Origin: Rhina ancylostomus
Taxonomy: Eukaryota
Assembly: GCA_030265395.1 (NCBI GenBank)
Contig: JARFYF010000071.1
Coordinates: 9,949,144-10,013,143, forward strand
Length of the DNA: 64,000 nucleotides
Direction of reading: 5' to 3'
This document shows positions 794 through 35,060 of the stretch, in pieces (the first letter of the stretch is position 1; each line of letters opens with the position of its first letter). The notes under the pieces are model-generated. The model did no database searches. It had not been told where the DNA came from and saw only the letters and a list, made by a program, of their open reading frames with translations. A program made the translations under genes and the position numbers.

Positions 794-3304
794 TCAACCG
801 ATTTTCCCATTTAGTATAAACATATATTTCGCTGCATTCATCAGTTCCTCCCTAAATTTCCTCTGTGTCAGTCCATAGAGACACGTATTGGTGCAGGTAC
901 TGAGAAACTGTAACATAAACCCAAACTGTTGCAGGATATATCTCCGTGTGCTGTAATATCTGCCTGAGTAGGAATAGTTCTCAGATTGCCACTTCATACT
1001 GTGTATAAAAATGGGTATCCACAGTAAAATGAATTTGGCTAATAGAATAAGCAACAAAATCATTGCCTTTCTCCGTCTGTCCACCTCTGTATCCTTCTGC
1101 TGCTCGCTGTTGTTCCGGAGTCCCTGGTGAACTCGATTTGCAGCTATAATATTTCTGATAGTTAAGGTATTGAACAGCAGGATTAAACAGATTGGTCCTT
1201 CCGGAGTCACAATAACATCATATAACTGGTAGGCTCTCCAAGCGGGTGGCATTAAGTATTCAGCCGAGGAGACTCAGCTCCATGGATCCACAGTAAAGCA
1301 AAATGGAATAGCCCGAGCACAGCACCCTGTACACACTGCTACTCTCACCACAGTCGCTGTTCTCTCGGTGAAATATCGTTTCCACAACTTCTGACAGCAG
1401 ATGGCGACGTAGCGATCGAAAGTGAAAACAACTGTGAACCAAAGGGAACATTCGGAGATTGCAACCCGAAAGACAATCATCACCGCGCACACTGGAGTTA
1501 TGAACACGAATTTAGCGAACAGATAGATATAATTAACCTACTGCAGTATAAGAGCAATGACAACGCACAACAGACCTGCTGCCGCCATGGCCTCCAGGTA
1601 GCGAGCGATGCATTTGTAGAGACCACATTTTCCGCGGAACAGGATAACAATCGCCGTTAAATTAATTGCATGAAATGATAAAACAGGATGTTACGTATCA
1701 ACGGGCCTATATTCTTCAATGTGTGTTGATTTGCGCAGAAAAAGAATGATATTCCGCATCGGGTCACAACCTGGAGCTGCTACCACTGAACCAACGCGCC
1801 TGCCGTGACCGCGATGGGGTCCGATGGCCGACCAGGCTGACATTGACCAAGCGACGTACAACTGGGACCTCGCCAGTTTAACGCTCTGAAGAAAATCGAC
1901 AGGACGGAAACCTATTGAGGCTGAGCTATGTTCTAATATATCTCAGATTCTGTCAAGCAATTGAAAGATAGCCGGATACATTTGCAGCTGCACCCAAAAG
2001 GGAGGGAATCCAGCGTTGTCACGATTGTTTCAATGGGTTTGAAAGAAATTGAAAGCTATGCCTAACCATCAAGGTACACAAAATGAAGAATCACTTAGTT
2101 TAATGGAAAGTATAGAAAACGATAAAAGAAGAATCGAATAAACGGGATGATTAAAATAACAGGATACAAATTCTACTGCCCCTCTCGTCAGAGGAAAGAG
2201 CTGAAGGGCGCGCTGAAAGACGAAACGTGCCAGTGATGCGGATACGGTTGCAGAACAGTGAGGACGACAACATTGTTCTTGAATGGAAAACACAGATAAA
2301 TAACTAACAGACAAAACTGTTCTTTAAATTAAAAAAAAAGTAGGGACAAAAGTAAGCAGGTCATGTTTGTTTATGGAACAACAAATGGCATTTGCCAAGG
2401 TAACCGACATGAAAAAATATTTTGAGGAACTTCGCAATGACGGTAACATTGGAAGGTAATTGACAGGAATTCGAAAGGGCGGTGAAATGACATTACCAAT
2501 GATATTTACCCCGATGCACAAAGTACTTTTGGTGTATTCTGTCAGATAAAGAGTTTGGGTCAGTGCTTTGTGCCCTGACAATTAACCGACTCCCAACTTG
2601 CGGAGAGACGGTAAAATTATAGTTTCTTCAGTTTGGGATGACGGAAGAGGAAGAACTCCACTTACACTGAGAGACAGGAAGAGCTGGCGACAGTGTTGTG
2701 CTGAGTGGCGTGCTACATGGAATCGTTTCCCTGCTTTCTCTTCGCTCTTTCAGTCAATCTTCAGGCTATAGTGAACACAAATGTGCTGGAACTGCCTGAG
2801 GCCAGAGCGGACTCAACAGTGACAAGGTCTCAACTGGCAAACCACATACGTCTCAGCGCCAGCGAGTCCTCACTACCTTTGTAAGGAAGTAACATGGTGC
2901 GAAATCTTATGGACTGTGAGCTTAGTAATCACGCTTAAACATCTCTGGTAGTCGGCGGTGTTAATAAGAAAAATAAATGTCTATTCCATGCTATGGTTGA
3001 TCAGATAGAAATATACTTCAATGTATTGATTTTTTTCTCCAATTAACATGCAGAATCAAACCATTAAAGCAACACAAATTACATTTTAGAACGAAATAAT
3101 CGAATCGTTTTCTTTTCAATTCCCACTTCTGAAATAAATCAATGCACTGAGCAACTGGAAATTGACGGCTCATGCATGATACCGCAAGGGTAATGATAGA
3201 GCCACACAAACAGCAGACGAATTCGAGACCTTACCAGGAATACCGATCGCTGCAAGTACAGGATAGTAGATTATGACAATGCTGTAAATAGCTGGATATC
3301 CCAT
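794..3304 (-). pseudogene. GPR139-like class A GPCR pseudogene, copy 1 (exon 1 3304-3235, exon 2 1665-794)
   Basis: Exon 1 reads MGYPAIYSIVIIYYPVLAAIGIP+G followed by a GTAAG donor. Exon 2 has TFDRYVAICC, LLWIP and STCTNTCLYGLTQRKFREEL. The acceptor reads CAA instead of CAG, and there are in-frame stops TAG (1540-1538) and TGA (1276-1274) relative to the intact copy. Confidence 0.9.
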
Positions 3305-3373
3305 ATTCTTCACGAAGCAGCGATGAGTTGCACAAAGCTCTCCAAGGGCCCACATGCTCTGTTTCAGGGAGCC

Positions 3374-3450
3374 CTTATACAGCAGGAGCAATGTCCTTGC
3401 AGCCAATTAGTGTTCTCTCAGTCAGATTATTAACAAACCACTGAACAAAT
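3374..3450 (-). promoter_or_regulatory. Conserved proximal promoter of the minus-strand GPCR paralogs (TATA-like, CCAAT/homeodomain-like, Fox-like motifs)
   Basis: GTATAAG lies ~70 nt upstream of the ATG, followed further upstream by CTAATTGG and TATTTGTT. Order and spacing are the same at 12603-12680 and 35129-35210. Confidence 0.45.
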
Positions 3451-4409
3451 ACATCGTGTGGACTATTTCCATGGCGACATTGTGCAATATATCTAATTCT
3501 ATGAAGCATATTGTAAACAGTTTAACTGAATGTTGTTTTTAAATAGTTGCAGTGGAGGACGCTGCACTTTCTGCTCCCTGCCATGAAGCCTGAACCGTTT
3601 GAAAAACGTTTTTTGTCTGTTGATTCGTTCTTGATTACAAACGCCATGGACGTAGAATGAAGCGATTTTAATGCAGCAGGTGAAATGAGAGATAAGCCTC
3701 CCTGGGAGTGGATAGCTGAGCCACGGTCTTATCTTTTAATTCACTGCTGTAAGCCACAGGCACACACGGATATGATATAAAATAACAGGTTTGCTACAAC
3801 CCTTCATGTCTCATAATATCAACATGTGCAGAGCAATCTGAGAACCGCTTATGATGCTCCGGATAGCCATGCAGTTGTCACGCAGCTGGTGGCAATGTGT
3901 GCACAGATTGACAGCAGTACTTCACAGTGTATATTTGGTCCACTTAGCCTATTTCGCATCCATGAGCGTTGCTGTTGGCCTTGTTTATATATTTAAAAAA
4001 TCTCTGATTTATCTGCATTACTTCTGCAAATATTTCATGCGTTCGGATTCAATCGATACATATGTCTTTCCAGGAAAACCAACAACCTATTCTCGTGTCC
4101 TTCTGCCAGTAACCTTCTCCCAATACACCACCACGAATCTATTCGGATTTTATTTGCCTCGTTTTTGCTTCTACCCAAATAGTCTCGTAAGTATTTCCTT
4201 CCAATTTGACAATTTCTTTCTGAACCCCACTATTTACTTTGTATTTATAATATATTGCAATGAAGTTCATTTCAACCTTGTTTTATCAGCCTCATTTTGC
4301 ATTTCTATCAGCTGGACAAGCACATTTTCCCTTGGGTAATCAGCACTGATCAGTCCTGGACAGACTGAGAATCTCAGCATTGACATCACGCTTTCACCGG
4401 TCGTCCCTC

Positions 4410-4485
4410 TGTCACAATGTTGATCCGGAGCAAACTCACAGAGAACCGAAATGCGGCACACCGATACAAGACTGGAGTCAGGATA
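4410..4485. mobile_element. LTR end (same family as the solo LTR at 60404-60814), cut by an assembly gap
   Basis: Starts TGTCACAATGTTGATCC and matches the reverse complement of the right end of the 60404-60814 element. Confidence 0.75.
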
Positions 4486-4798
4486 NNNNNNNNNNNNNNN
4501 NNNNNNNNNNNNNNNNNNNNNNNNNNNNNNNNNNNNNNNNNNNNNNNNNNNNNNNNNNNNNNNNNNNNNNNNNNNNNNNNNNNNNTAATCCAGATCTGGC
4601 AAATTTTACACGATGCCGTAATCTCTTTCTGTGTCCATACCGACTCTGTGCGCTCTCTCGATCCTTAGTAGGAGACAGGGACGAGTTCCCGCCGCGCGAT
4701 GCAGCAATAAGGTGGAATTGTCACCGGAACCTGTCAAAACCTGCACTGGCTTCAGGTCTGATTAGTAATTTATTTCCTTCCTTTTGTCTTTCTTCCAG

Positions 4799-6092
4799 TT
4801 AACATGGTGGCGATTTCGAGACTGTCCCGAGAAAAGTTCATTCTGTTGAAATGCATCACTCGCTAAATGGTGGGAATGGAAACGGAAGGTCGACTGGTCG
4901 TTATATCGGACACCCTGCTGAGGTGAACTGATGTGATTTATTTTCTACGATAATTCCTCCGCATGACTCCCGTGTGCAGTTATCTAATATGTCTCATGTT
5001 TACAAGCACCGAGGTCTCTATCTGTTTGACAGTCGCTTTCTCCATCGATCGATTTGTCGCCATTTGTTGTGAGAAGCTGAATGCAAAATATTGCACTGAG
5101 GGAACGGTGCCTGTGTTTATCGGGACAGTGAGCATGCTGGGCTGTTCAGAGACTGTCCCAAGGTTCGTTACATACGAGCCTGAGGAACTAATTGATGATG
5201 TTCTCTGGAACGTGTTCTTAAACTGAGCTTCAGTAAATACTCCGCGTGGGCGATATTTGAGCTGTTAATCTGCATTTTAACCCCATGCTTCCCGTTCCTT
5301 CTGATTTTCCTTCTCAAAGTTCTGTAACAGAGGTGGACTGCTCTGATTTATTTTCCACGATCATTCTTCCGTATTACACCCGTATGCCGTATCGATCTAT
5401 GGCTAGTTTTTGCCAGTACTGCGGTTTCTGTCTGGCTTACGGTCGCATTCACTTTTGATCGTTTTGTGGTTATTTCTTCCGAGAAGCTGAAAACAAAATA
5501 TCACACCCAGAGAACGGCGGCTGTGTTTATTGGGAGAGTGAGTGTGTTGGGATGTTCAGAGACTTTCCCTTGGTACTTTATATACGAGCCAAGAGAAATA
5601 ATTAATGGTGTTCCCTGGGAATGTGTCCGTAAACACAGCTACACCACATCCCCTGCATGGGCAGCATATGAGATGTTCCACCGCATTTTAACCCCATATG
5701 TCCCATTCCTTTTGATTTTACGGTTCAATGCTCTGACGGATTTTCGCAACCAGTCGAGTCCACAAGGGGCTCCGAGGCTGCAGCAATGGAGAGAATGATA
5801 AGGACACGGAGATTAAAAGCGACGGAAATCCCTCGTTTTACCCTTCAGTTTAACCGTCAGCTTTATACTGTTGTGGGTTATGCAGGTGGGGTTTTACCAA
5901 CGAATTTCAAATTTTACCGGCAAATTTGCCACAATCTTGTCACAGATCCTCGTTACATCTCTGAAAACACGGTGGAATGTTGCAGCTTCTAAGTTTCTGC
6001 ACCAACAGGTGGCGCAGAGCGAATTCCGAGAGGAGCTGAAGAATGCGGTGAACTACCCGCTTATTCGGATTATGGCAATCATTAAATCATAG
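4799..6092 (+). pseudogene. GPR139-like GPCR exon-2 pseudogene, copy 2, with an internal ~410 bp duplication
   Basis: A polypyrimidine tract and CAG acceptor are followed by NMVAISRLSREK...CITR*. The TM3-TM5 block occurs twice (SIDRFVAICCEKL and TFDRFVVISSEKL), and the C-terminus is FREELKNAVNYPL. Several stops and frameshifts. Confidence 0.85.
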
Positions 6093-6176
6093 GAAAAAAA
6101 TGCGTCAAACAGTGTAATTAAATCTAACTCCCTGCCCCCTAACGTCTATCCCAGACCGGGGAGAAAGTGGAAATTC

Positions 6177-6600
6177 TGTTACCTGTTGACCCTCACAATG
6201 TTTGGTAGTAACACAATAAACATCCTACACGGATTTATCACGGCTTGGTGTGGCATCTGTTCTGCCCAACGCCGAAAAAATCTGCACAGAGATATGAATA
6301 AACTAATTCCATCCCCCCCTCCATGGATTCCGTGGAGACCTCCCGCTGGGTCGGTAAAGCAGCCAACGTGTTCAAAGACACCACCCACTCCAGACATTCT
6401 CTCTTTTCACCCTTTCACTGTGCAGCAAATATAACAGATGGAAAGCCCGTACCACCATAGTCAAAGGCAGATGCTATCCCACTATCAGAAGATTGAACTA
6501 ACCCTAACCCTATGAATAGAAATTAGCTCTATGGATGGCATGTAAACAGAAGTTTTCACTCTCTCTTTATACGTGCGACAAAATAAACCAATTATAATCA
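6177..6600 (+). mobile_element. Degenerate Rex1/Babar-like LINE 3' fragment
   Basis: Resembles 23280-23850 (ITAWCGICSA, CACCCACT...TTCTCTCTTTT) and ends GTGCGACAAAATAAACCAAT. Confidence 0.55.
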
Positions 6601-6829
6601 CAATTGTGAACAGAACTCTGCAACACACATTTAAAACATCATCACGACTTTACCCCCAGCCTCACCATCCCTGAGATATCCCGTTTACCTCAGACACGCT
6701 TCCTTAACTTACTTCTAATCCTGACACCAGATAGTTACCTCTGCTTCCAATTCTGACACAGCGTGTTCGACCTGCAGCGTTATCCATGTTTACCCTCTGC
6801 ACATGCTGCCTGACCGATTGAATACTTAC

Positions 6830-8070: not shown

Positions 8071-8177
8071 AACGGCGNNNNNNNNNNNNNNNNNNNNNNN
8101 NNNNNNNNNNNNNNNNNNNNNNNNNNNNNNNNNNNNNNNNNNNNNNNNNNNNNNNNNNNNNNNNNNNNNNNNNNNNN

Positions 8178-9620: not shown

Positions 9621-12533
9621 TCAAGGAATCGGATTTGTATTTAATTTACACAGCTGCCTATTCAATGTAAACAGATATTTCACTCCATTCTTCAGCTCCT
9701 CCCTGAATTTCCATTGCGTCAGTCCATAGATACACGTGTTGGTGCATGTACTTAGAATCTCCAACATAAACCCAAACTGTTGAAGGACATATCGCGGTGT
9801 GCTGTAATATCTGACTGTGTAAGAATAGTTTTCAGCTTGCCAGTTCATAGTGTGCACAACACTGGGCATCCACAGTAAAATGAAATTGGCTGATAGAGCG
9901 ACAAACAAAATCATTGACTTTCTCCGGTTCTCCATCTCAGGATCATTCTGATTCTCACTGCTGTTCCGAAGTCCCCGACGTACTTTATTTACTGCTATAA
10001 TATGTCAAACTGTTAATGTATTGAACAGCAGAATTAAACAGAATGGGAGTACTGGAGTTGCGATAACGTCAAACAAATGGAAGGCTTTCCAGACCGGTGA
10101 TGTAAAGTACTCAGCTCTGGTGACACAGCCCAAAGGATCCACTGCAAAGGAAAATGAAATAGCTTTGGCACAGCTCGCTGAACTCACTGTTACTATCAAC
10201 ACAGTCGCCGTTTTCTCTGTGCAATATCGTTTCCGCAGCATTTGGCAGCAGATGGCGAAGTAGCGATCGAAAGTGAATGTAACCGCTAACTAAACGGAAC
10301 AGTCCGCGGATGTGACCCATAGAATAAGTACCACAGAGCATACCGGAGCTACGGAGAAGACATTGGTGTACAAATATGTATAGTTAATCTGCCCTAGTAT
10401 TACAGCGACGACAACTACCATCAGATCTGCTGCCGACATGGCCACCAGGTAGCGAGTGATACACTTGGTGAGACCACATTTTCCGCCGGACAGGATCACA
10501 ATCGCCGTAAGATTAACTGAAAGTAATGATAAGACTCAGAGTTATTTTCCAACGGCCCCGAGTTGATCAGTGCGGCTTTATTTGCATCATAGCAACAATA
10601 CTTCGGATCTCTGTGTGGAGTCACCTCCTGGGAATCAGTCCACCTACCCTGACCGAAATGGGATGCTATTGGAGGTCAGACACTCACACCACTCGCGATG
10701 TACAGCTGACGCCTCGCCAGTTTCAAGCCCTGAAGTCAACAGACGGGATGGAAAACTGGTGAGCGAGTTTTCCTTAAGAGCAGGGCTCCCAAGGTGATTC
10801 TGCTCAGCAGTGAACACAGGACAGGATACCTTGTATATGGCCTCCAAGGTTACTGCATTCAACGCGGTCTCTGTTGTTTTCATGGCGTCGGTGAATCGCG
10901 TGGAACGGTACATGCAGTGCAGTTGTTTGTTTTAATATTACATTTCTTGACATAATTGTGTTGTTTCAAATAAACTGGCCTTCAGTTGGGTGCCTTTCAA
11001 ATGAATATATTTACTAATTGCATCCATAAAAACCTTTAATATATCGCATCTAATGGAGAGGAATGTTTGGAGACGAAGAAAGAAAGACAGCCATGTGACC
11101 TCAAGAGATATCAATATTCTCTCCAGGAATCCGCGGGCAGGGAGGCACATCATCCCGCTTAAAGTCAGCTGTCACCCTTGGTCGTACTTCCTCGTGAAAC
11201 GGAGATATCAGCGAGGCGTCCCGAAAGTAGGGAGTTGTAGAGTGGAAGGTCAATCGAATGCGCGAGTACCGCGCGGGACGTGGAAATCAAAGGTTGTCCT
11301 GAGAAGCGTAATCAATGGAACAATTATGGGAATTGACTTGTTCATGGAAAATCTGTGAGGATTTGAAATAAATGCCCATCCACAGAGGTCCACATAATCG
11401 TTAATCATTTCGTGAGCTGGCAAAAGACGCAGACGATGAACTGGGTGGTCAATATAATGAAACACAAATTATACGCCTCCTCCGTTCAGCGGAAGGAGTT
11501 GAACGTCGGGTTGAATAAAGACAAAGAGTCAGCAGAGCGGAAAGGGCTGCTGACGCGACTTATGGGACGACACTTCTTTGGAGAAACACAGATAAGTAAT
11601 TGGCAGACACAATGACTCTTTTTTGAAGAGCAAATCAGGGAGTTCTCAAGCAAACAGTTACGGTTCGATGATGGACCACTGTATGACACGTTCCAAGGAA
11701 ATAGAGGTACTTCGGAATGACAGTAACATTAGTACGTAGTTGGACAGTAATTTCGAAGGGCGATGATATGGTATTGTCATTTATTTCTTCACTGACGGAC
11801 AAGGCGCGTTTGGTGTATTCTGCCGGCCAACAGAGAATGGGTCATTACCTATTCCCTCACACTGAAACGACACAGACTTGCGTCGAGAGGGTACAATTAG
11901 AGTTCCCTCCGGTTTGGATGACAAGGGAGGAAGAATTTCATTTCCATGCAGAAACAGGAAAGCTGTTTGTAGTTTTGGGCTGAAGCGAGCGGTGACAGGA
12001 ATTCTCCCTGTATTCAGCCGTTCCTTCGGCCAATCTTCACGTTCTTGTGTATAGAGTTGCGCGGGGTTGCCCGAGGCCAGAGCAGACGCTGCAGCAACGA
12101 ATCTCAACTGGCAAATAACCCACGTCTCCGTGCCGGTGCATTTTAACTGCTGTTGAGGGGACGTTTGGATTGCTGCGGAACCTTATCGTCAATGCGATTT
12201 GCATGCATAATTGATAATATTGTTGCTCGTAGGCGTTAATAGAAAAATAAATTTCTATTATATGTTTAAATTTCTCACGCAAAAAATATGTAAATGTAAG
12301 AAAAATATCACTGACATTCCCAGACAACAGTACGCCTTTAAAGCAGCATAAATTGAATTTTAAAGCGAAATGATGTAATGGGCTGACCATTTGGATAATA
12401 AGACACGGTTAATTTACGATGCCGCAAAGGTAATACAAAGACAGAGCTGTGCTGATAGCTTACCGGGAACAACAACCGCAGCAAGCACAGGATAGTAAAT
12501 TCTGACAATGTGAAAAATTGCTGGATATCCTAT
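9621..12533 (-). pseudogene. GPR139-like GPCR pseudogene, copy 3 (exon 1 12533-12464, exon 2 10516-9621)
   Basis: Exon 1 starts ATA (ATG lost) then GYPAIFHIVRIYYPVLAAVVVP+G with a GTAAG donor. The CAG acceptor is intact. Exon 2 stays in one frame with two stops (TAG 10292-10290, TGA 10007-10005) and has GKCGLTKCITRYLVAMSAADL, TFDRY and STCTNTCIY. Confidence 0.9.
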
Positions 12534-14458: not shown

Positions 14459-17200
14459 TAAACCCCCCCCACACACACACACACACAGAACCGGCGATAC
14501 CGTCGCGAAAACCAGAATTAAATACATTATGAGTTGGGTGGCCTGCTCCTACGTCGCGCTGGCTGGACCACGATCGGTTGGTCCAGGTCTAAATGAGCCG
14601 GCTTCAGCCGGTCAATTGTAAAAACCTCCTAGCGTCCCCTAATGTCCAACACAAACGTAGACCCATTGCCCTTGACTACCTGGAATGGTCCTTCGTACCA
14701 CTGCTGCACGGAGTTCTGTGTGCGCCCCTCCTGACAAAGACAAACTTGCAGTCTCGGAAGGATGTCGGCTTCCGTGTCGGGGTTTGTCCGTGCCGCATAG
14801 TGGGAATCGGGGTCAGGTTGTCAAGCCGTTCGCGTAAACGGTGGAATTTCGCAATAGGTTCTTACACTGGCCCCCCCCCAGGGGCTGGTAGGAACTCGCC
14901 CAGGACTACAAGAGCGTTCCATTAACCATTTCTGCGGAAGAGGCATTCAGGTCCTCTTTTGTTGCAGTACGTATCCCTAGCAGGACCCAGGGGAGTTCGT
15001 CCACCCAGTTGGGCCCCGTAAGGCGGGCCCTGAGTGCCGATTTCAGGTGCCGTTGGAACCTCTCTACCAGCCTATTGGATTGCGGATGATAAGCGGTGGT
15101 GAGGTGGATTTATGAACCCCACAAGTCGGCGACCGCAGACACAGGCCGGAGGTGAATTGAGCTCTCCTGTCCGTGGAGACATGGGCCGGGACACCGAAAC
15201 TGGCCACCCAAGTTGACCAAAGGGCCCTTGCGTAGGACTGGGTGGAGGTGTTCGCAAGTGGAATGGCTTCAGGCCAAAGGGTGAAGCGGTCGACAAAGGT
15301 GAGGAGGTACCGCACTCCTCGGGAGACTGGGAGGGGGCCGCCAAGGTCGACATGGATATGGTCGAACCTCCGGCGTGTAGGTGGAATATTCTGCAGGGGG
15401 GCCTTGACATGTTGCTGTACTTTGGAGGTCTGGCAGTGTGCGCAGGATCGGGCCCACTCAGAAACCTGCTTACGCAGGCCGTGCCAGACAAGCTTGTCGG
15501 ACACCATCCGGACAGTAGTCCGGCTGGATGGGTGTGTCAGGCCGTGGATGGAATCAAAAACCCGTCGAAGCCAGGCAGCTGGAACGATAGGGCGGGGTTT
15601 AACGGTGGAGATATCGCAGAGCAGGGTACGTCCCCCGGGATCGACCAGTAGGTCTTGCAGTTGCAGGCGGAGAATGTAGTACGATAGATGTCCGTTCGTT
15701 GTGCCTCCGCCAAAGCGCCAAAATCAACCCCCCGGGACAAGGCTTGGACGGCGGGCCGTAAAAGTGCATCCGCAACCAGATTCTTCTTCCCGGACAGATG
15801 GCGGACGTAGGTGGTGTGTTCCAAAATGTACGACAATTACCGTTGCTGCCGTGCTGACTAGAGATCTGAAACTTTGTGCAAAGCGAAAGTTAACGGCTTG
15901 TAGTCGGTGAAAGCTGTAAACGACCTGCCCTCGAGGAAGTATCGGAAGTGTCTGATGGCCAGGTACAGCGCCAACAGCTCGCGTCGAAGGCACTATATTT
16001 GAGCTCTGGTGGTCGAAGGTGTCTGCTGAAGAACGCCAGCGGCTGCCGACGCCCTTCAATTAGTTGCTCGAGAACGCCTCCGCTCGCTGTGCTGGAGGCA
16101 TCGACCGTGACGGCGGTAGGGACGTCCGTATGAGCATGTACCAACATGACCGCATCTGCTAAGGCCTGCTTGGTTTGGACAAACGCGGTGTGAGCCTCCT
16201 CTGACCAAACAATGTCCTCTATTCCACCTGACAGGAGAGCATACAACGGGCGCATGATGCGGCCTCGGATGGTAGTAACCGGCGATAAATACATTACCAT
16301 ACCGAGAAATTCCTGGAGGCCCTTGACAGATGTGAAGTGGCGGTTGGCATCGACATTTGCAGGCAGGGGGAAGACGCCATGTTTGTCGATCCGATGGATC
16401 AGGAAATAAACTGTCTCGAGCCCGAACTGGCATTTAGCCCGGTTGATGGTGAGACCGAAATCATTCAGGCGAGAACAGAGTTGGCGGAGGTGTGTGAGAT
16501 GTTCCTGGCGACTGCTGGCGATTAAGATGCCATCGAGGTATATGAAGATGAAGTCAAGGTCGCTCCTGACCGTGTCCATCAGTCGTTGGAAGGACTGAGC
16601 AGCGTTCTTGAGGCCAAAGTGCATCCGGAAGAATTCAAAAAGACCAAAAGGTGATAACAGCTCAGTCTTTGGAATGTCGTCCTGATGCACCGGGATCTGG
16701 TGACAGCCGCCGACCCGGTCCACCTTGGAAACAATGGACCGGCCGTGCAGGTTGGCAGCGACGTCCTGAGTGTGCGGCACGGGGTACCGGTCTGGGGCAG
16801 TTACGTCGTTCAGGCGTCTGTAATCGCCGCAGAATCGCTAGCCCCCGTTTGCCTTGGGGACCATGTGTAGCGGAGAGGCCCATCGGCTGTCCGATCTGCG
16901 GATGATCCCCAACTCCTCCATTCCATTGAATTCCTCCTTTGCGAGGCGGAGCCTGTCCGGACATCGCCGTCGGGCGCGAGCGTGGAGGGATTGGTAATGC
17001 GATGCTGTGTTTGGGCATGGTGGTGGAGAACTGCGGCGTGAGCACAGACCGGAACTCTGCCAGGACCATGGCGAACTCGTTGATCGACGTTGTGACCGAG
17101 TCGAGGTGTGGGACCGATAGTCTGGCTTCACCCAACGAGAACATTAGGAAGGTCCTGTCATGTACCGAACGCTTACCCGGCAGGTCAATCAGCAAACTGT
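14459..17200 (-). mobile_element. Ty3/Gypsy pol remnant (RT, RNase H, integrase), 5'-truncated and frameshifted
   Basis: RT: WASPLHMVPK, MHFGLKNAAQSFQRLMD, FIYLDGILIAS. RNase H: VDASSTASGGVLEQ...PLAFFSRHL. Integrase: HGLRKQVSEWARSCAHCQ, HIHVDLGGPLP, STDRRAQFTS. Confidence 0.93.
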
Positions 17201-18775: not shown

Positions 18776-20839
18776 ATGAACAAACTATAAAGTGGGTTGT
18801 TACATTAAGGTTTGAGAATCTGGGAACAGTAGAGTTTGTAGTCACCGATTGGAATCTGGGAACAGTGGAGTGAGGTGTTCCAGGAATATGTCAGAGTCGG
18901 AAAACAGTAAACCCGAATTGTATAGCAATTGGAAACGGCGTATTTCCATCGTACCGGTATATTTATTTTCGAATTATCCTCGGATAGTATTTTAGAGCCT
19001 GATCTCTAATTTACTCCGGAGTATTCGGCACGTGTATTAGCCGATGCTCGCTGTTGCTACTGTTCCAGGTATATCTCTGTCTCAACATCCGACCAACAAA
19101 CAGGTGAGAATCAGTGGTTAAGGGGTCCGGTAAAGATGCCTGACAAGTGGACAATTCATTACGTGTTCCAGTTAATGAAGCGCAAAGCCATCACTAAGTG
19201 AGCTTCGGTCGAGAGAATTCAAATACACAAACCTGTTCTGTGTGCGGAGATCAGAGTCTTGAATGGCGTGTTATTAACCTTCGTTTCTCAAATAATTTTT
19301 AAATATATCCCTGACATGTTCCCAACTACTTTTATTAAATCGATAACTGCTGCTGCCGTGCGTCTGATCATCTGTACCCACCTGTCAGAACTGTCTACGG
19401 CAATCAGTAAGCCAATTTAATTTTTACCAATGATCGCATTTAAATCTTGAGAAAGATCGTTTCCCACCGCATCCATCCACCTCCCAGGAACTCCGTGAGA
19501 CTGAAGCAGACTGTTCCCTCGGGAGTATGCAGTGTGGCTGCAAAACGTTTCTTATCGGAAGCAATTTGCGGCCCGATAAAATGACGCTGAATAACTGGGT
19601 AATAAATGGAGGGTGGAACCCAAAACAACACAAATTCACTGCATGAAGAAAATAAAATGTGACCGCATCTCTGACGTACACTAACGCAACTTCACGAGGT
19701 AATGAAGTGTGAGTTCATTCTCCATGCTGAACTCCCATGGAGCAGAAAATAACAATAAGGACGAGGAACAAAGGCCGAACCCGCACATTGATCAAGTCAA
19801 AGTATGACCATTTCCTCAAACGAAGCTCTGTCATTAAGGAATTTCTGCGTTATTGACTGGGACACTGAATGAATTATTCGCTCATAAGACATCTGTACCC
19901 GAGCCGGCAGCCAGGGCTTCTCACCTGTTTATTGGTACCGAGTGTCCACTTAATAGTTGATTTTACTGAATTGTAATCCAGCGCACAACTCGGCCCCAGG
20001 TGCATTAAATTCGAATTATGAATCAAAGATCTGTCTTGTACTTTTGATTTAGCTCTCAGTGAAACTGCTAAAGTTCTTCCAAGCCCTCTGTCACGTTTCC
20101 TTTTATTTCCTTCCTCACAGTGAACGTGCTGACGATTGTGATCCCGTCCGGGGAAAAGTGCGGTCTCTTCAAAGGTGTCACTCACTACTTGGTGGCCATG
20201 CCATCGGCCGATCTGCTGGTAGTTGTCCTCGACTTGATACTGAAACAGATTCCAGTTTTTCGTCCAGATTTTCGTTTTGTGTTGTCAGTCCCTGTGTGTA
20301 ATATTCACGCTGTCCTACTTTACGCAGCCACCGACTGTTCTGTCTGGTTCACCGTCACTTTCACTACTGATCGGTTTGTGGCTATTTGTTTCCAGAATCT
20401 GAAAACTAAATATTGCACCGAGAGAACGGCGACTGTGGTTCTCGGAACAGTGACTGTGATGAGCTGCTTAAAGAACATTTTCTGGTATTTTCTGCTCTCA
20501 GGATACTACCAGTTAATTAATCTCCCCTGGTTTTGCTATGAAAGACCTGGTATTTTTATGTTAAAGGCTTGGACTGTGGTCGAATTCGTCCATTACCTCC
20601 TCACCCCTGTGATCCCATTTGTCCTCATTCTCCTACTCAGTGCTTTGACCATCAAACGTGTTTTACTAGCGAGCAGAGCCCGCAGGAGACTCCGGAGTCC
20701 CAGCTCTGAGGACAATCCTAGAGACCCTGAGATGGAGACCCGCAGGAAATCCCTCATTTTACTGTTGGTTGTGTCGGGGAATTTAATCCTGTTGTGGGCG
20801 TTGTTTACGGTGCATTCTGTGTGGATCCTGTCCACATAA
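18776..20839 (+). pseudogene. GPR139-like GPCR, copy 4: damaged exon 1 (ends 19068) and open exon 2 (20121-20839) truncated after TM6
   Basis: Exon 1 ends IRHVY*PMLAVATVP+G|GT with TAG at 19038-19040. The acceptor is TTCCTCACAG. Exon 2 is open for 239 codons (EKCGLFKGVTHYLVAMPSADL, TTDRFVAICF, RRKSLILLLVVSGNLILLW) and then stops at a CR1 fragment, with no TM7. The 5' boundary is uncertain. Confidence 0.8.
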
Positions 20840-21917: not shown

Positions 21918-23853
21918 TCACACCATACTGAAGGGCAGGACTGCTGCACACAAATCTGATGATCCATATCTGAACAAGAATTCGAGGTATGACCTTCGGA
22001 AAGTTATCACGGATGCCAAGCGGCAATACCGACTCAAAATAAGAGTCCCTGACCAGCCGTCAGTTATGGCAGGGCTGACTCGCCATAATAGGCTACGAGA
22101 CAAAGTCAAGCTGCAGAACCAACAACAGCGCATCCCTTCCTCATGAACTTAACGCATTCTATGTGCATTTTGAACAAAAGGGAAGTGGATTGTCACCATC
22201 CACCCTGACAGCCATCAACGCAGATGAACCTATGATCAGAGTGGAGGACGTAAGGTCAGTCTTCCGGAGAGTGAACACAAGGAAAACACCTGGCCTAGCT
22301 GGTGACTCTGGCCGTGTGTTCAAATCTGTGCTGACCAGCTGGCAGAAGTATTTGTGGACATATTCAACCTCTCCCTTCTTCAATCTCAGGTTCCCTCCTG
22401 TTTCAGTAAGATCACTATCATCACGGTACCGAAGAAAAGCAAAGTAGCATGCCTTAATGGCAACCGACCAGTGGCTGTGACATCCAGCATTATGAAGTGC
22501 TTTGAGATGTTGGTTATGGCACGTATCACCTCCAGTTTACCAAACAATCTGGACCCATTGTAATTCGCCTATCGCCGAAAAATGTCTACAACGGTTGCCA
22601 TCTCCCTCCCTTACACTCAGCTCTGGAGCAGCTGGACAGTAAAGATACCCACTTGCGACTATTTTTCATTGACAACAGCTGTGCATTCAATACAATAACC
22701 CCATGGAAGCTTGTCACCAAACTCCGAGACCTAGAACTCAACACCTCTCTCTGTAACTGGATCCTTGACGTTCTAACAAGCAGACCGCAATCAGTGAGGA
22801 TAGGCAGCAATACCTCCGGCACGATTATTCTCAACACTGCTGCCCCACGAGGCTGCGTCCTCAGCCCTCTACTCTACTCCCAATAAGCTCATGACTATTT
22901 GGACGGATTCTGCTCCATCTCTTTCTACAAGTTTGCAGATGATACCACCGTTGTAGGCCGAATCTCAAACAGCGATGAGTCGGAGGACAGGAAGGAGATA
23001 GAGAGCCTATTGGAATGGTGTTATGTAAACAAACTTCCCCTCAATGTCAACAAAACAAAATAACTGGTCATTGACTTCAGGAACGGGGACGGTGTATATG
23101 CACCTGTCTACATCAATGGTGCTGAGGTCGAGAGGGTTGACAGCTTGAAGTTCCTGGGAGTGAACATCACCAACATCCTGTCCTGGTCAAATCACGTAGA
23201 TGCCAAGGCCAAGAAAGATCACCAGACCCTCTACTTCCTCAGGAGCTAAAGAAATTTGTTTTTTCCCCTTTGACTGTCACCAACTTTTACAGATGCATCA
23301 TAGAAAGCATCCTATCTGCATGTATTACGGCATCGTACGGCAACTGCTCTGCCCATGACTGCAAGAAACTGTAGAGAGTTGTAGACACAGCCCAGCGCAT
23401 CACGGACACCAGCCTCCCCTCCTTGCATTCTGCCTGTAACTCTCGTTGTTGTGGTGCAGCAGCCAACATAATCAAATACCCCACCCACCTGGGACATTCT
23501 ATCTTCTTTCCTCTTCCATCGGGCAGAAGATACAGGAGTATGAGGGCACACACCACCAGACTTGTGCAGCTTCTTCTGCACTGTGCTAAGACTATTGAAC
23601 TGTTCCCTTATACAATTAGATGAACTATGACCTCACGATCTATCTTGTTGAGAATTTGCACCTGATTACACGACACTTTCCCTCAATCTGTGACACTTTG
23701 TACTGTTAATGTTTTTATCTGTACTACGTCATTGCACTTGTATTACGCAATGTCATTTCACTGTTTAATGAATTGACCTGTACGATCGGATTGTAAGAAG
23801 ATTTTCACAGTACCTCGGTACAAGTGACAATAATAAACCAATACCAATACCAA
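21918..23853 (+). mobile_element. Rex1/Babar-like LINE, 5'-truncated, with decayed RT
   Basis: [43 protein letters not shown] and YKFADDTTVVG; 3' tail AATAATAAA(CCAATA)n. Confidence 0.9.
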
Positions 23854-26487: not shown

Positions 26488-27364
26488 TGAACCCAGCGGC
26501 GATAGCGATGCTGGCCGGTGAAAGAGAGGTCTCTGCGTCTGCACAATCTCCTAGCTGGTGGCCAAGGCAGCCACCGATCTGCGAACAATGGCTATCACGG
26601 TCATACTGAAGCGTATCAGCTTTTACTTCCCTGATCCTCTCTGGATATCCACCCACTCTGCTGTGTTATGACTTTTTCTCATGTGTGTGTCCAGGGATTG
26701 TTCTGCCTGCTTTATCTTCACTTTCAATTTCGATCGCTTTGTTCTTTTTGTTACCACATGATGAAAACGAATTATTGCACAGGAGAAACTGCGGCATGGT
26801 TCGAGCAAAAACTGGGTTTGCACTCTGTTTTTACCACTTCCCCTTCTGTTTCATATTTGACTCTCAAGACATAATTCACGACGTGCCTTGGTACTGTGAT
26901 AATAAATCAAGCTGTTAAACAGAGTCAGAGTGGGTGATATTTAGTACGGCTGATAACATTATGAACCCATTTCTCCCATTTGGTTTTATTTTATTGTTCA
27001 GTGTCCTGACAGTCAGGCACATTTTATTGACTATTCGTGTCCGTAAGGTACTGAAGGGTCCAAATGACCGGGGGATGGAGAGCTGAAGGAAGGTCTGTAA
27101 TTATATTCTTCACCATATCCGAAAACTTTATTGTTTTGTGGTCAAAGCTGTTCTCGAATTCTTGCAATATGATATTGCTGGAACAGATCCAAATAAGTAC
27201 AACGATTTCGAAGAAAGCTTTGGAAACTCGGATATATGCTACAGAATTTATCGTTACGCACGAACACGTTTATTAGTGGGGTCAATCAATCATATTTCAG
27301 ACAGAAGTTTGCGAAAGAGGTGAAATATCCAATATCTTCCCTCATTCGAATCATTAATAAATGA
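26488..27364 (+). pseudogene. Heavily decayed GPR139-like GPCR exon 2, copy 5
   Basis: Acceptor TTTGTTACAG|TG AAC. Recognisable remnants are LVAKAATDL, TTTCGATCGCTTTGTT (FDRFV), KTNYCTGETAA, IIHDVPWYC, RSVIIFFTISENFIVLW and EVKYP. Many indels; exon 1 not identified. Confidence 0.75.
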
Positions 27365-30300
27365 AACCGCTGAACACTGGCAAACAGCGCCTCTGCAGCG
27401 GGGGACAGGAGAATCAGTGTATTTTACAGAGGAACGTCCAATGATTCGAAAATATTCCGAGTAACGCGTTATCACAGCTGTCTGTGTAACTGACACTTGG
27501 AGTCCACACTGCGCCTGAAGTCACCTCTGTGTAACATTACCAAAGCAGCCTTCCACCACCTTTGTTATGCCCATGCTCGCCTCTACTTCACCTAATGTGC
27601 GTTCTCCCCACCAATTTCCATCTTACTTTTCTTAATAACAGTCAAAGCTGACAATCGATTTCTCCTCTCCGTTCCGATTCCCGGGGCTGCTATTCTACAA
27701 GATCTTCGGCTGTGATGAAACTCCTCTTCGAAGCCCCTCTGCGTCTGACATTGACATTTGATTTCTGAAACTGCAGAACAGTGCGGAATATTTGCATTTC
27801 TCTAATCCTGGTGAGGAAGTAAAGAGTTAAGAAATTGTGACTGCGCATATAACTGATGAAAGAAATACCCTTTAAGCAAGAGCAAGCAAACCACTGACTC
27901 AGGACTAGATGGTAATTACTATGTCCGGACTTGGTTGCAAGCCAATTACACTTGATAATAAGAGTACTAGTTACATTTAACAGTGAGTAGGAAGAAGAAT
28001 GAAGGTGATACCTGTCTTTGAATCTCTTGATTATAAATCAATTATACTGAACAATAGGTGCGATGTCTGTCTCGGGATCTATGAGGCCTGACCGAAACTC
28101 GCGGCGCCGCATTCATTCAGTGTGCATAACAATATCTGTATAAATTACAGTCTGCTCCTTTGTATTGAGGATGCCTCGGTTAGCGACTCTCAACGAGTGC
28201 TGACGGGACTTCTCCCTGGCGGTATACTGAAAATAAACGCGTTTTACTAAATCAACCTGGTGGCACTGTGTTACTTTGCAGCAGACAGAAGTGGGAACTT
28301 AAAATCGGGATAGCACTGGCCTTTGCAATTCCGGTAATTTTGATTTCTGTATTTCACTTTTAATTTATTCATTCGCTGTACACCATCGACTTTGATATAA
28401 CATTTCCTCAAATATCCAAGTAGCGCGTTTCGCAACTCCCTGTAACTTTATAATTCACAAAACTCCAGGCTGTCTTGACAGGACAGATGTGAGAGTGATG
28501 TTGCCGCTTCATCGGGTGGAAAGAATCCACGATCATTGGTTCAAAACATTTGGCCGTCTGTTCCTTGTGATCTGAGAAGAAATTGGTTCTCCCATAATCC
28601 TCGGAGTACTGTATCCAAGACGCCTGTGAATGTCAGTCGTCGAGAACATTCATATATGAGATCGGGAACGTTTACATATTTCGCGAATTCAATGCGGGAC
28701 ATGCGGGAATTTAAAATGAACCCCAATTAAATAAAGTAGTAACCAAACTGCTTATTAATCGAAGTTTTATCATAACTTGGGCCAAATTCTGTGTTGCCAT
28801 CTGCTGAAATATTGCGCGAATACGATCGGCTTTGTTTTGACTTTGCAATTCTTTCCTAGTTCCCTGTGACTTGTGAGGTTACACGTTCTCTGCTCCCTAC
28901 TTTAAAACTGTGCAGCTTCTTTCCGCTTCTCTCGCAACATGCGTCCTAAAACCAAACAAACTCCAAACATGTCTGCATTGAACATAACCAGACCGAGTCT
29001 GCCCTTTTCAACGGTAGCCGAATTCCTCTGAAATACATCCCGATTCCTTTCCTCCTCAATTTGTGAGAGCTCAAAATGTGCAGAGCACTGTATTTGGTGA
29101 AGGAGAGAAGCATTGGAATTTTACTTAATTCAGCAGTTCAGCAACGCGTTTACGCATAATGTAGCATACAACATGCTCCTCCCATTAATGCGAATGTCAT
29201 TGTTTAATTTCCCTTTCATTAATATTTTCCATGAGCAAAAAATTAATAATGATTTTGGGGAAAAGATGGACACCTGGGTGGGTTTGAAATCAGCCTCAAT
29301 CACGATAAATGACGAAGTGGGTTCGAGAGGCTCAACGCTCCACAGCCGATCTTCTTCCGCATTTTCCACAAATCTGCGTGTACCCATTTTGATGCGTTTT
29401 TATCTTTCCGTTAATAAGAACAGTGGGAACCGAGCCCATGTTATACACAAGTCAGTTGGAAACCAAGTGGATACCACTGCATTCTCCTCCCTCTCAATTG
29501 GCCGATTCCATATGACTGCTGACAGCTCTGTACCCATTCCATAAATTTTCCGCCGCTTCCTGAATTTAACCCATCATGTACTTCCCTGTGTAAGAATATT
29601 GTCACCCCTCAAATTCAGGTGTAACACGCCCTTCTGTTCAGGTCAACCCTTGCCCAGGAAGTGCTCTCAATGATATGAAAAGCTGAAGAATTCCCTCTTG
29701 CATTCATATGTCCTGCCATTTTAATCTCACCAGCAACTGCCACGAGGAGTGATTCTGAGTTTACATCGCTTGAGGTCCTGCAGAGCAATGTCCTACCTAA
29801 CTCATTACATTCCCTCTGCCGGACCCGAATATCCTTCTTACCTACGTCACTGATATCAACACGTCTGGCATCTATTGTTCTCACCTTCCACGTTCAAGAT
29901 GTTCTCTACCCGTTCTGAGACATCCCTGATCATGGCACCATGGAGGAAATTCATCATACATGGAAGAATCTACACAGTCTCTTGACTATCGAGCCACTGC
30001 TGTCGGCAAATGACTACCGTAGGCTGCCATTTGATAATAGTTAAACAGGAGTGCGGACACTGCGAATTGCTCTGATCCTGTGTCCTGTCATGCTGAGAAC
30101 CAGAAGAATGAGGGGCTTGCAAAGGCACAATATTCTGCCACTAAATTCTTTCCGAAGTGAAATGATACACGCTACGAATGGAAGCTTGCCACAGTTGCCT
30201 CCAGGTATCTTCAAGGTCATGACTCTGGAACTCATGAGTTCATTCATGTCCTCAAAGGTTGCTTCACACATCAGGACTGAGGAAGAGCAACCTCAACCTC

Positions 30301-32102
30301 GCCCCACCCCTCTTGGTCCTGTCATTGCCATAGCGAAGTAGAAAGAAATAACATGGCCTCTTTGAGCAAAGTGGAGAAAACGTCAAACGTGTACCGCGAA
30401 ATCGATATCTGACACACACCGATATCAAAAAATGATTCAGCTTTCGTCAGCGGATCTTTCAGCGTGGGTACGCCGAAAGATACGCCGAGTCGCTCTTTCT
30501 GCACCAACCTCGAGTGCCGTCTCTCGGAGCATTGTAAACTCTGGTCCCTTCATATTATATTTAGGTCTCCTGCGGAGAGCGTAACGATGGGTGGGTCCAC
30601 TTCAGAGAAATCCCAGGTGGTACAAGTGGTCACGTGACCGATTGGGAGATGTGCTCACCGGGCAGAGGTTTAAGCAATTAGGTGTGCTGCCCACCAGTGG
30701 GGTGAATGTATATGAAATCGTACAACATAGCTGGGTTGGGAATAAAGATCTTGAATTGTGAGTTCAAACATCACCTCGGAAGAGGAAAGTTTAATTCAAT
30801 GATATGCAGTAAAACAATCCTAGAGTCAGCAACGGCAACAAGCAAACTAAAGGAGTGTTGTGAATCATAGGTCTTGCATCCCTTTCTGTTGCTCTGGCAA
30901 CGAGCGATGGAAGATTCTTCAATAAACCTCCACAAGTCTCGGCCGCGACCACAGTTTGAAGGTAAAAGCTACACAGCCATTGCAAGAAAGGAACTCTTCT
31001 CAATAGACAGAGCGCGATACACACTCCTCCCCGCTGATATTTACGAAGCCTACGTGACAACAATTATTGACGTAGCTTCTCATATAACCATTCACATTTC
31101 TACTCCAAGTATCACTTCATAAATTGCAAAGCCCCCTTTTTAAAACACACATCAAACACCTCCCTTTTGCATGTGTAGTACCTCCTGTCACATGGAATCC
31201 CTTTTGAAACAGGATTAATCAATGGACTAAATAGAATATATCATTCCTCTATTCAAATCCGATGAGAACTATCTTGCTCTCTCACCCAACATACTACAAT
31301 CCCATTCTATCCAGCCTGTCTGTCTTCGCCAGAAGTGTAGGGAACGCAGGAATATCACACGCGGACATTCTGATCAATTTCATTCCGTTTACATCCAGTC
31401 CATTTAATTGAGAGTCATCTCCGTTGCAGACCTTTACTTGGCCTCGGAGCCTCTACGTTACAACAAACTACAAAAGAGAGGAGAGTGATAAGGTCATGGA
31501 AAGTTCTATATAGTTCTATCCTTTACTGATGATAAGCGTAAAGCATGAACATAGACCCAATTACCAAAGAAAAATTCAGAGGAGTATCCTATATTGGAGG
31601 ACATTAAAGGCGTCAGACAACACGAAATGCAATGGGTGAGATCACCTGAAGACGTCACATTCCGCCATTATAGACCAGTCAACGTTTGATGTTCGAACAA
31701 TGAAATAATTAAAAAGAAAACAATTTTCCAAAACCAGACACTAAAAAAATATTTCGGATTTATTGGGGATTTGTATCTTTTAGGTGAACGAGATGTATTT
31801 TTCTTCTGTTTTGAGCAGGTATTTGTCAACCATTTGTTTATTGCGATACGATAGATTTCCATTCACATTCTCACTTCTGTTTGTTTTTGTCAACGGTAGT
31901 GGAATTTAATCCCATGCTTTTTGGGCCATTCATCCTGCATTGAAGATAATAATAAAATCGCTGTTGCCTGATCTGCTCAATCCGTTTCCAGTATTAAATC
32001 TTATCAATATCCGACAGGATATAGAAAGAACAGTCTCTTCAGCAGCAAATAAAACAGACTTCCGAATCACTATTTCAGAAATCAACGATTCTGGTTTGCA
32101 TT

Positions 32103-32977
32103 TTATTTACCAAGTTGCCCATTTAGTGTAAATAGAAATTTCACTCCATTCTTCAGCTCCTCCCTGAATTTCCTCTGTGTCAGTCCATAGAGACACGTGT
32201 TGGTGCAGGTACTGAGAAACTCCAGCATATACCCACACTGCTGTAGTATATATCTCGGCGTGCTTAAGTATCTTTCTGTGTAGAAGTAGTTTTCTATTTG
32301 CCATTTCATACTGTGTACAAAATAAGGAATCCACAGCAAAATGAAATTAGACGACAGAATGAACAACAAAATCATTGACTTTCTCCTCTTTTCCACCTCT
32401 GGATCCCTCTCATTCTCGCTGATGTTTCGGAGTCCCCGGCGGACCCGATTTGATGCTATAATGAATCTAACAGTTAAAATATTAAACAACAGAATTAAAC
32501 AGACTGGTAATGCTGGAGTTACGATATTGTCACACAACCTGTAGGCTCTCCACACGGGTGACGTTAGGTATTCAGCTTTGGCGGCGCAGCGCCGTGGATC
32601 CACTGCAAAGTAAAGTGGAATAGCCCGAGCACAGCTCCCTGCACACACTGTTATTTTCACCACAGTGGCTGTTCTCTCGTTGCAATAGCGTTTTCGGAGC
32701 TTCTGACAGCAGAGGGCGACATAACGATCGAATGTAAAACCAACCGTGAACCAAACGGAACAGTCCGAGATTGCACTGCGTAGGACAAGGACCGCATTAC
32801 ACACCGGAGTTCTCAACAAGAAATTAGCAAACATATAGATATAATTAATCTGCTCCAATACCACAGCGACGACAAGGCCCATCAGATCTGCTGCCGCCAT
32901 TGCCACCAGGTAGCGAGTGATGCATTTGGAGAGACCACATTTTCCGCGGGACAGGATCACAATCGCCGTTAAGTTCA
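32103..32977 (-). CDS. GPR139/GPR142-like orphan class A GPCR, copy 6, exon 2 (apparently intact; spliced protein 314 aa)
   Basis: TTTCTTTCAG acceptor in phase 1, then an uninterrupted frame covering the rest of the 7TM bundle: VNLTAIVIL, AMAAADL, TFDRY, ECL2 Cys, LLWIP, STCTNTCLY and helix 8 FREELKN. A family-like paralog, not claimed to be the GPR139 ortholog. Confidence 0.88.
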
Positions 32978-34990
32978 CTGAAAGAAATGACAAAATATGT
33001 TGTTACTTCCCAACGGACCTAGATTGTTCAGTGTGAATTGGTTTCCACAGTGACATTAATTTTCTGATCGGACCACTGATAGGAACCGCCGCCAGGTGAC
33101 CAGGTCGCCTGCGCTGACCAAATATGATGTGGATAGTTCAACAGACTGAAATTGCCCGAGCGACGTACAGCTGAGTTCTCTCTAATTTCGCGTTCTAAAC
33201 TCAACCGACAGGAACAACAGCTGGAGGCTGAGACGAGAACATAGCGCCTTCGGGTGGTTCTGCCATGCTGTGTTCAGATGGCCCGATACAAAGCGGAGGG
33301 CATCCAGCGCAGTCTCTGTCATTTTACTGGGGTTGGCGACTTGCGAGAAACGGCACATGCAGTGGAATGATTTGTTTCAATTTCCCATTACTTGAAGTTT
33401 TCATTAACTGTCCTCAGTTTGGTCACTTCTGAAATGAATGTATTTAAGAATTGCATCTGCAAAATATCTTGAAAAAGTTACATCTGATTCCGCAGTTATT
33501 TGGAGTCGACGTGGAAAGCCTTTTGACGTCACAAGACATCAAATGACTCTCATGGATATTCGGGGACAGGGAGTCACATCATCCCCGTTAAAATAATACG
33601 TCACTCTCTGGCCGCACGGCCTTGAGGAACGGAGATACCAGCGAGATGTCCAGGACGCGGGAAGCCATAGGACAGAAGAGATCAATTGGGTGAGAGGTGC
33701 ATGGTGTGAAACACAGAAGTTGCCGGGACAGTTGTGATTAGTGAAACGATTGGGGAAACGAATACGTTCATAGAAAACCTGTTGGAAATTTTAAGTAATG
33801 CACAACCAGATCGGTCGATATCCCCAGTATAGTTTAATTGGATGGCAAAAGTGGAGAATTAGAGAAGAGTCACCAAATGATCGCGGTGGTTCAAGTGATG
33901 GCACACAAAACACACTCCTGCTCCCTGTAAGGGAAGGAGTTGATGTTCGCGCTGGACAGGGTAGAATCAGTAATGGGGAAATGGCTATAGAAACTGTTCA
34001 GAGGACAAAAGTAATCTCGTTTGGAGAAATACATATGAATAATTGACAGACATGACTGCTCGGTTTTAAAGAACAATAAAATCATTTTTGATTTCCTTGG
34101 CTGTGCTTTTCAACTATCAACGAAGACACAAAAAACAGACTCGTATTTGTTGATGGAACACCAAATCGCATTTTCAAAGTTAACCCAGAAAAAACCTTCA
34201 GAATAGAGATAATTCGCAATGACTACACTGGAAAACAATTGACGGGAATTCGAAAGGATGATGACATGACAGGACCATTTGTTCATATTTCGATGTATAA
34301 AATGCGTCCATTGGACAGACAACAGAGTTTGGGTCATTGCTGTTTGCCCTGATAGTTTGACGACACGGATTTGCGTGGGTCCGTACAATTACAGTTCGTT
34401 CAATTTGGTATGACAGCAGAGAAAGGACACCATTTACATTCCGAGATAAGAAAAGCTGCCAGTAATTGTCTCCCTGCTTTCTCGCCTCTCCTTCAGTCAA
34501 TCTTCAGGCTATTGTGAGCACAATTGTGCTGGGCCTGCCCGAGGCCGAGCGGACTCAGCAGTAAACAGGTCTCACCTGGCAAACCACACACCTCTCAGCC
34601 CCGGCAAGTCCTGATTGCATGTGAAGGGAGGTAACGCTGGTGCAAAATCTTACCGACTGTGCGCTTTGTAAGCAGGCATATATATCTTGCATTCGGCGCT
34701 GTTGATAATAAAATATTAATGTGTATTACGTGCTTTCGTTGATCAGACTTAAATATATCTAAATGTATTGAAAGTTTTCTTTAAATTGCTATACTGAAAT
34801 ACACTATTAAAGAAATATAAATTACATTTTAGAATGTAAAAAGAGCCTAATTTTCTTTTCAGTTCCCACATCCTGAAATAATGTAATAGACTGAGCATTT
34901 GGACAGCAAGACACGTTAATGTACAATGCAGCCAAACGTATTACATTACATGGAGCTGCAAATCATCAGCATTCAGTTCCAGTCCCTTAC

Positions 34991-35060
34991 CAGGAATACC
35001 GACCGCTGCAAGGACAGGAGAGTAAATTCTGACGATGTGAAAAATTGTTGGATATTCCAT
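34991..35060 (-). CDS. GPR139-like GPCR, copy 6, exon 1
   Basis: 70 nt encoding MEYPTIFHIVRIYSPVLAAVGIP+G with a GTAAG donor. The phase matches exon 2, and the same 70-nt exon occurs in copies 1 and 3. Confidence 0.85.

Follow-up and report, generated by a model that had tools for sequence, protein, structure and literature searches.

The window analysed here is a 64,000-nucleotide stretch of Rhina ancylostomus DNA (contig JARFYF010000071.1). Between positions 794 and 35060 it carries six loci, on both strands, belonging to a birth-and-death family of two-exon G-protein-coupled receptors (GPCRs) of class A with about 1,400 loci in the genome. It is likely a chemosensory repertoire of the olfactory type, a reading to which we give about an even chance. 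The copies are very numerous, cluster near scaffold ends and include many pseudogenes; the signalling face is conserved, the outer face is diversified, upstream motifs are shared and the origin probably lies beside the single-copy GPR139-like orphan receptors. The tissue, ligand and coupling of the family are inferred. The first-pass annotation had interpreted the cluster as a diversifying receptor repertoire. This interpretation is supported, because the copies are not few, the ratio of nonsynonymous to synonymous substitution rates (dN/dS) is not near 1 family-wide, and the family does not lie inside a characterised receptor family.

Family size and genome layout

When copy G of the window (Table 1) was used to search its own genome, all 135 scored sequences matched (3,514 candidates). 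The corresponding search with copy E gave 151 matches, nearly all at loci distinct from those of copy G. A 29-base pattern from transmembrane helix 3 (TM3) has 503 exact matches in the genome and none in the control, while a slightly tighter pattern with up to two mismatches has 1,408 matches against 7. The tighter pattern recovers all 51 independently found open exons and misses two of the seven receptor pieces in the window, and the number of loci is therefore at least 1,408. The genome-wide copy number, a check named beforehand, thus did not refute the proposed repertoire.

Forty loci, hand-picked across scaffolds, were fetched from the first 100 listed exact matches. Exon 2 is open in 18, cut by an assembly gap in 7 and broken in 15 (18 of the 33 gap-free loci are open). 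The number of intact genes is estimated at about 340 (230-450), a rough value that refers to exon 2 only and does not count assembly errors. The pairwise identity of 61 open exons is 40-90%. No pair of these 61 exceeds 95%, and on this sample haplotype duplication was rejected as the chief origin of the count. Among 90 listed exact matches, 51 lie less than 2 Mb from a scaffold end, compared with 7.6 expected; this count covers 13 large scaffolds (C57, listed only in part, and the small contigs are not among them), its matches are not independent, and the ends may be assembly breaks. The family therefore has the hallmarks of a repertoire, being large and clustered with birth and death of its members. 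The same genome contains at least 33 class C matches and at least three odorant-receptor matches (7tm_4 search), the latter at loci outside the family.

A search for relatives found 1,602. In the best 120, every named protein belongs to a ray, skate or shark, and almost all carry the label "probable GPR139" (NCBI). A search with the exon junction adds the chimaera Callorhinchus milii. The family had been described as lineage-specific, which is not borne out: sharks and rays as well as a chimaera possess members. In the tree described below, the subfamilies combine sequences of rays and sharks, and those of the chimaera are placed within the family; therefore its diversification is likely to be older than the splits between these groups. 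In many database models of the family (P0001-P0211) the N-terminus is wrong or the coding sequence runs through the intron, a hint of scant transcript support in the annotation. None of 116 exon-junction matches came from run assemblies, and in three runs the intron is covered as by genomic DNA, without a splice joint; neither observation bears on expression.

Relationship to GPR139 and related receptors

The family belongs to class A GPCRs, with a 7tm_1 domain, seven helices and the residues D2.50, DR3.50 and N7.49/Y7.53. PF00001 is the sole domain match of the copy G protein at E<=0.01. When the family profile was compared with solved structures, GPR139 was the sole match below 1e-10 (62.5 bits). 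A single-sequence search of the PDB gave a neurotensin receptor at 37 bits and GPR139 at 32.6; that identity was rejected, as such a search does not name the family. Foldseek was likewise discarded as an identifier, GPR139 being ranked 30th among near-equal peptide receptors.

The true GPR139 is present as one match in the genome; its exon 1 lies about 47 kb upstream, and its intron interrupts the same codon in the same phase as that of the family. The probable GPR142 is also a single match and has the same acceptor as the GPR139 intron. Each adjoins a weak 7tm_3 match; in human, GPR139 and GPR142 likewise adjoin GPRC5B and GPRC5C. The phase-1 intron, located before the Asn of TM1, is common to the family, GPR139, GPR142 and two single-copy relatives, and its AG acceptor is found in 59 of 61 family exons. 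However, the family members are only 21-27% identical to GPR139. The possibility that they are orthologues of GPR139 or GPR142 was rejected because of this low identity, the true orthologues elsewhere in the genome and the separate clade.

A wide search with the ray GPR139 found "GPR139-like" proteins of coelacanth, polypterid, lamprey and amphioxus, which outscore GPR139 on the family profile. The two single-copy relatives in the genome are GPR139-like orphans, L124 (G000:C53:27.24 Mb) and L125 (G000:C2:82.06 Mb), to which databases give the wrong name GPR139. Each species of shark, bony fish, amphibian or reptile has about one orthologue of L124, here called the coelacanth type; the best 120 rows, as far as they are named, include neither mammals nor birds. 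The family is 29-36% identical to the single-copy orphans.

The tree was calculated from 46 rows, 28 of 74 having been dropped as redundant or for time. The family forms one clade (100/100) with a stem length of 1.36. It is sister to the coelacanth type (92/88) within a vertebrate GPR139-like clade (98/94); amphioxus is next outward, and GPR139/142 are outside the vertebrate GPR139-like clade. The family stem is long, and a tree forcing the family together with GPR139/142 was not rejected by the approximately unbiased test (p-AU 0.059). The family is thus a separate clade, best placed on its sequences beside the single-copy non-mammalian GPR139-like orphans, and not inside a characterised receptor family. 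The GPR139-like kinship proposed initially holds for the wider clade and the common intron, but the best-placed relatives are the orphans of fishes, amphibians and reptiles, not GPR139/142 themselves. In one report, GPR210A/B are named beside GPR139/142 in coelacanth, gar and fishes (PMC6504862), and "Orphan 139-like" and NMOGPR are listed in a table of another (PMC5207463). The GPR139-like orphans are probably the same receptors as these.

It is useful to compare the family with known receptor systems. It is similar to GPR139 and GPR142 in the best solved-structure match, the intron codon and the retained W6x48; these, however, are single-match genes, and, unlike GPR139, the family has a cysteine pair in TM3 and extracellular loop 2 (ECL2) and lacks the full Trp/Phe pocket. 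The non-mammalian orphans (coelacanth XP_005988539 and its polypterid and lamprey relatives) are closest in the tree and share the intron, the short N-terminus and the cysteine pair, but they are conserved single genes while the family is vastly expanded. With the OR, TAAR, V1R-ORA, V2R and T2R families it has in common clusters, pseudogenes and outer-face diversification. Its compact promoter resembles theirs in part, homeodomain and TATA motifs being enriched, the O/E-like one weak and forkhead the strongest. The family would work as they do, but differs in its coding intron and peptide-receptor ancestry. Membership in OR, TAAR, V1R, V2R or T2R was rejected, as only PF00001 matched, the 7tm_4 matches are at three other loci and the tree is separate. 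MRGPR and FPR are clustered, fast-evolving class A receptors of the peptide-receptor type, but they belong to a different branch of class A and the family is far larger. The invertebrate FMRFamide-receptor-like/Srw GPCRs belong by their features to the wider clade and have expanded repeatedly (PMC11589774); the family, however, is an independent vertebrate event, and the invertebrate rows are outside it in the tree.

Receptor structure and selection

The AlphaFold model of a Mobula member (mean predicted local distance difference test score, pLDDT, 83) has seven helices, helix 8 and a hairpin in ECL2, and about four residues precede TM1. The predicted fold resembles those of peptide receptors, all about equally well. 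The TM3 and ECL2 cysteines are kept in the family and are not found in GPR139. As described in a previous study, activation of GPR139 by Trp/Phe needs the four residues F109, H187, W241 and N271 (PMC5430874). At the pocket positions F3x33, H5x43, W6x48 and N7x38, none of the 61 receptors keeps all four residues; three are kept in 2, two in 26 and one in 33, and 39 residue combinations are found. The amino-acid pocket of GPR139 is not kept, and therefore Trp/Phe sensing does not carry over to the family.

Selection was assessed in three subfamilies with our own grid codon model, which takes the synonymous rate as uniform, using IQ-TREE branch lengths and 40 null simulations per subfamily. The regions were set from the model helices and generic pocket numbers, and the alignment of extracellular loop 3 is uncertain. 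In the E subfamily (18 sequences), 2dlnL is 137 against a null maximum of 3.8, dN/dS is 1.10 for the outer and 0.25 for the inner face, and 30 of the 32 sites with P>0.9 are on the outer face. The T subfamily (13 sequences) gives 16.8 against 7.2, with dN/dS of 0.63 and 0.21; all six selected sites are on the outer face, five of them at predicted pocket positions. In the G subfamily (23 sequences) the values are 5.9 against 4.6, and 0.53 and 0.32. Purifying selection acts on the inner face (dN/dS 0.21-0.32), and positive selection falls on the outer one, strongly in E, moderately in T and marginally in G; this agrees with the diversification that had been proposed. A PHI-type test for recombination was not significant in any of the three subfamilies.

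Promoters

The promoter set consists of 54 of 57 sequences, three E-type ones having been dropped for an unsure start, and most E-type genes are outside it. A common layout occurs in subfamilies whose proteins are only 40-50% alike. A TATA box is located about 75 nt upstream of the ATG. Ahead of this box, at distances of about 72, 29 and 22 nt respectively, are a forkhead-type TGTTTRTT, a TAATTR and a loose O/E-like palindrome. The forkhead-type site is found in 28 of the 54 promoters (1.8 in shuffled sequences), the homeodomain site in 33 (13.8), TATA in 28 (10.7) and the O/E-like site in 8 (1.1). In distal and intron controls the motif counts are low and similar to shuffles. Immune-factor motifs are not enriched in the same promoters (ETS 3, RUNX 2, IRF 1; octamer 9 against 15.9 shuffled; NF-kB 9 against 6.2). 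By eye, the strong family motifs were not seen upstream of the two single-copy GPR139-like orphans.

The five promoters of genes that we take to be V2R-type contain TATA (5/5), homeodomain (4/5) and forkhead (2/5) sites and no close O/E match. [quoted passage not shown] A Greek-Island-type composite gave a register score of 6.65 against a background of 5.52 (20 sites, p=0.002) in the family; this is a lead only, as the sites are not independent and the yardstick is one mouse probe.

Two side observations were made. Three genes presumed to be T1R-type (L216-L221, G000:C59:17.19-17.25 Mb) each have, by eye, a ATGCAAAT octamer in the promoter, likely a POU2F3 site. In the E-subfamily genes L032, L037 and L038, exon 1 has about 46 codons, twice the usual length, and short repeated motifs with no obvious shared promoter are found upstream.

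Possible function of the family

We propose that a duplicate of a single-copy GPR139-like orphan could have changed fast on the chondrichthyan stem and gained a compact promoter, its expansion preceding the divergence of sharks, rays and chimaeras. Each intact gene would be switched on from the shared promoter in olfactory-type sensory neurons. Every member would signal via one G-protein pathway, with specificity set by the pocket and loops, and each receptor might detect different external peptides or small molecules. A stronger form of this proposal, which is possible although rather doubtful, is that the family is a chemoreceptor system of the chondrichthyans' own, derived from a neuropeptide-type orphan, with hundreds of intact genes sparsely chosen in olfactory neurons, a locus number rivalling mammalian odorant receptors and a role as the main smell repertoire over V2R.

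Several observations weigh against an olfactory role. The top 50 olfactory-specific genes of catshark, in the part of the report available, include no GPCR, which holds for V2Rs too (PMC11979771). The motifs were picked after the first 24 promoters had been viewed, and the promoters share descent. The O/E-like signal is weak and absent from all 19 promoters of the G subfamily; forkhead, the strongest family motif, occurs in only two of the five V2R-type promoters and names no tissue. The G subfamily, home of the intact gene in the window, has one selected site and marginal selection. In the E subfamily 21 of the 32 selected sites are in loops and 5 in the pocket, a pattern as in host-pathogen arms races.

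This loop-centred selection, together with the high turnover of the family, would also suit innate-immune sensors similar to FPR or MRGPR, placed on leukocytes, mast-like or barrier cells and directed at microbial or parasite peptides. EBF is active in B cells too. MAS1 and its relatives are reported absent from cartilaginous fishes (PMC8455134), and immune cells express one subfamily of ORs (PMC13113109). However, none of the immune-factor motifs is enriched, the promoter architecture is of the homeodomain and TATA kind, and hundreds of intact genes exceed the FPR and MRGPR repertoires, so an immune function is considered unlikely. A non-olfactory chemical sense (irritant, itch or common chemical sense, in ganglia or in solitary chemosensory cells of skin, gill or mouth) would be expected to leave the same genomic and selection signature. 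The dominance of forkhead in the promoter and the two-exon clustered layout, recalling that of sensory-neuron MRGPRs, are consistent with it. The octamers present in all three T1R-type promoters are, however, not enriched in the family, whose promoters partly resemble the V2R type, and this explanation is somewhat more unlikely still.

The peptide-receptor fold of the model, the FMRFamide-receptor-like clusters among the feature neighbours and the expansion of FMRFamide-like receptors in a snail (PMC11589774) could point to endogenous or reproductive peptides. Such receptors would act in sperm, oviducal gland or brain, in the manner of the invertebrate clade of MIP/sex-peptide/FMRFamide receptors, with which GPR139 is allied. 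But a few endogenous ligands do not need hundreds of receptors that are 40-90% identical and have a variable pocket, and the single-copy relatives are still kept in the genome, which makes this improbable. Finally, the scaffold-end clustering, the broken state of five of the six window copies and the many matches that fall on small contigs, in an assembly of 65,984 contigs, would agree with a neutral by-product of chromosome-end segmental duplication or an assembly artefact. This is highly improbable and already largely refuted by the inner-face dN/dS, the lack of pairs above 95% identity among 61 receptors and the occurrence of the family in many other species.

The supposition that the biology of the family is undescribed agrees with our literature searches, in which no description of the expansion was found; subscription papers are thinly covered and unread supplements may name the genes. 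The term "gpr139" is absent from the main text of PMC11979771, as far as it was available, and a term search of PMC11886862 gave no match. All eight supplements on catshark cartilage (PMC13188829) and 12 of 24 whale-shark supplements were also without a match. Cartilaginous fishes are described as having a paucity of GPCRs (PMC8455134), and four small olfactory families are treated, with small repertoires despite large noses (PMC10116579, PMC11979771). The family is apparently a real, very large receptor repertoire of a known functional kind, undescribed so far. Hundreds of intact diversifying receptors contradict the few-GPCR view, whichever the tissue. If olfactory, they would be a new vertebrate chemoreceptor family and alter how smell in sharks and rays is understood; if immune, they would be a very large innate sensor set.

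The receptor cluster in the window

The features of the six loci, located by tblastn with the open exon of copy G as the query, are presented in Table 1. Six paralogs on both strands with a single intact one had been annotated in this region, and both statements are borne out: only copy G is intact, with a product of 314 amino acids, and A, B, D, E and F are broken. The intron of copy G is identical in codon and phase to those of GPR139 and the single-copy relatives. Its upstream region may act as a promoter, to judge from the sites listed. The internal duplication of copy B is old, its two parts being 74% identical across 407 nt. The cluster extends past the window on both sides, with more copies in the preceding 50 kb and one open copy about 1 kb beyond the window, near the end of the 10.02-Mb scaffold.

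Table 1. Receptor features in the window (positions numbered from its first nucleotide)
Feature	Position	Strand	Remarks
Copy A exon 2, pseudogene	794..1665	-	AG of the acceptor lost; internal stops at 1540 and 1276
Copy A exon 1	3235..3304	-	homeodomain site and TATA box upstream
Copy B pseudogene	4799..6090	+	internal tandem duplication; no exon 1 found
Copy D exon 2, pseudogene	9621..10516	-	stops at 10292 and 10007
Copy D exon 1	12464..12533	-	ATG replaced by ATA
Copy E exon 1, decayed, with upstream region	18783..19068	+	66-70% identity to E-subfamily loci
Copy E exon 2, ends past TM6	20121..20836	+	belongs to the strongly diversifying E subfamily
Copy F decayed pseudogene	26488..27350	+	frameshifts; exon 1 not found
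Copy G exon 2, open, from second half of TM1 to stop	32103..32977	-	875 nt; PF00001 match
Copy G phase-1 GT-AG intron inside TM1	32978..34990	-	2,013 nt
Copy G exon 1	34991..35060	-	70 nt (23 codons + 1 nt)
Copy G predicted promoter	35129..35210	-	degenerate forkhead site; homeodomain site at -104; TACA in TATA position at -74

Some details of the first-pass annotation stand in part. The common exon 1 layout is clear in A, D and G and decayed in E, but exon 1 was not found for B and F. The intracellular motifs quoted for the cluster are a consensus; all five are exact only in D, four in G and one or two in the other copies. The length of the extracellular loops does vary, but mainly between subfamilies, with an 8-residue ECL2 deletion in the G subfamily.

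Other elements are also present in the window. A broken pol of a long terminal repeat retroelement (reverse transcriptase, RNase H and integrase) lies between copies D and E at 15067-16837 on the minus strand. Reverse transcriptase fragments of the long interspersed nuclear element type are found at 22506, 52145 and 61196. Five tRNA genes (two Met, Asn, Ser and His) are located at 39157-45780, directly after the receptor cluster and near the scaffold end.

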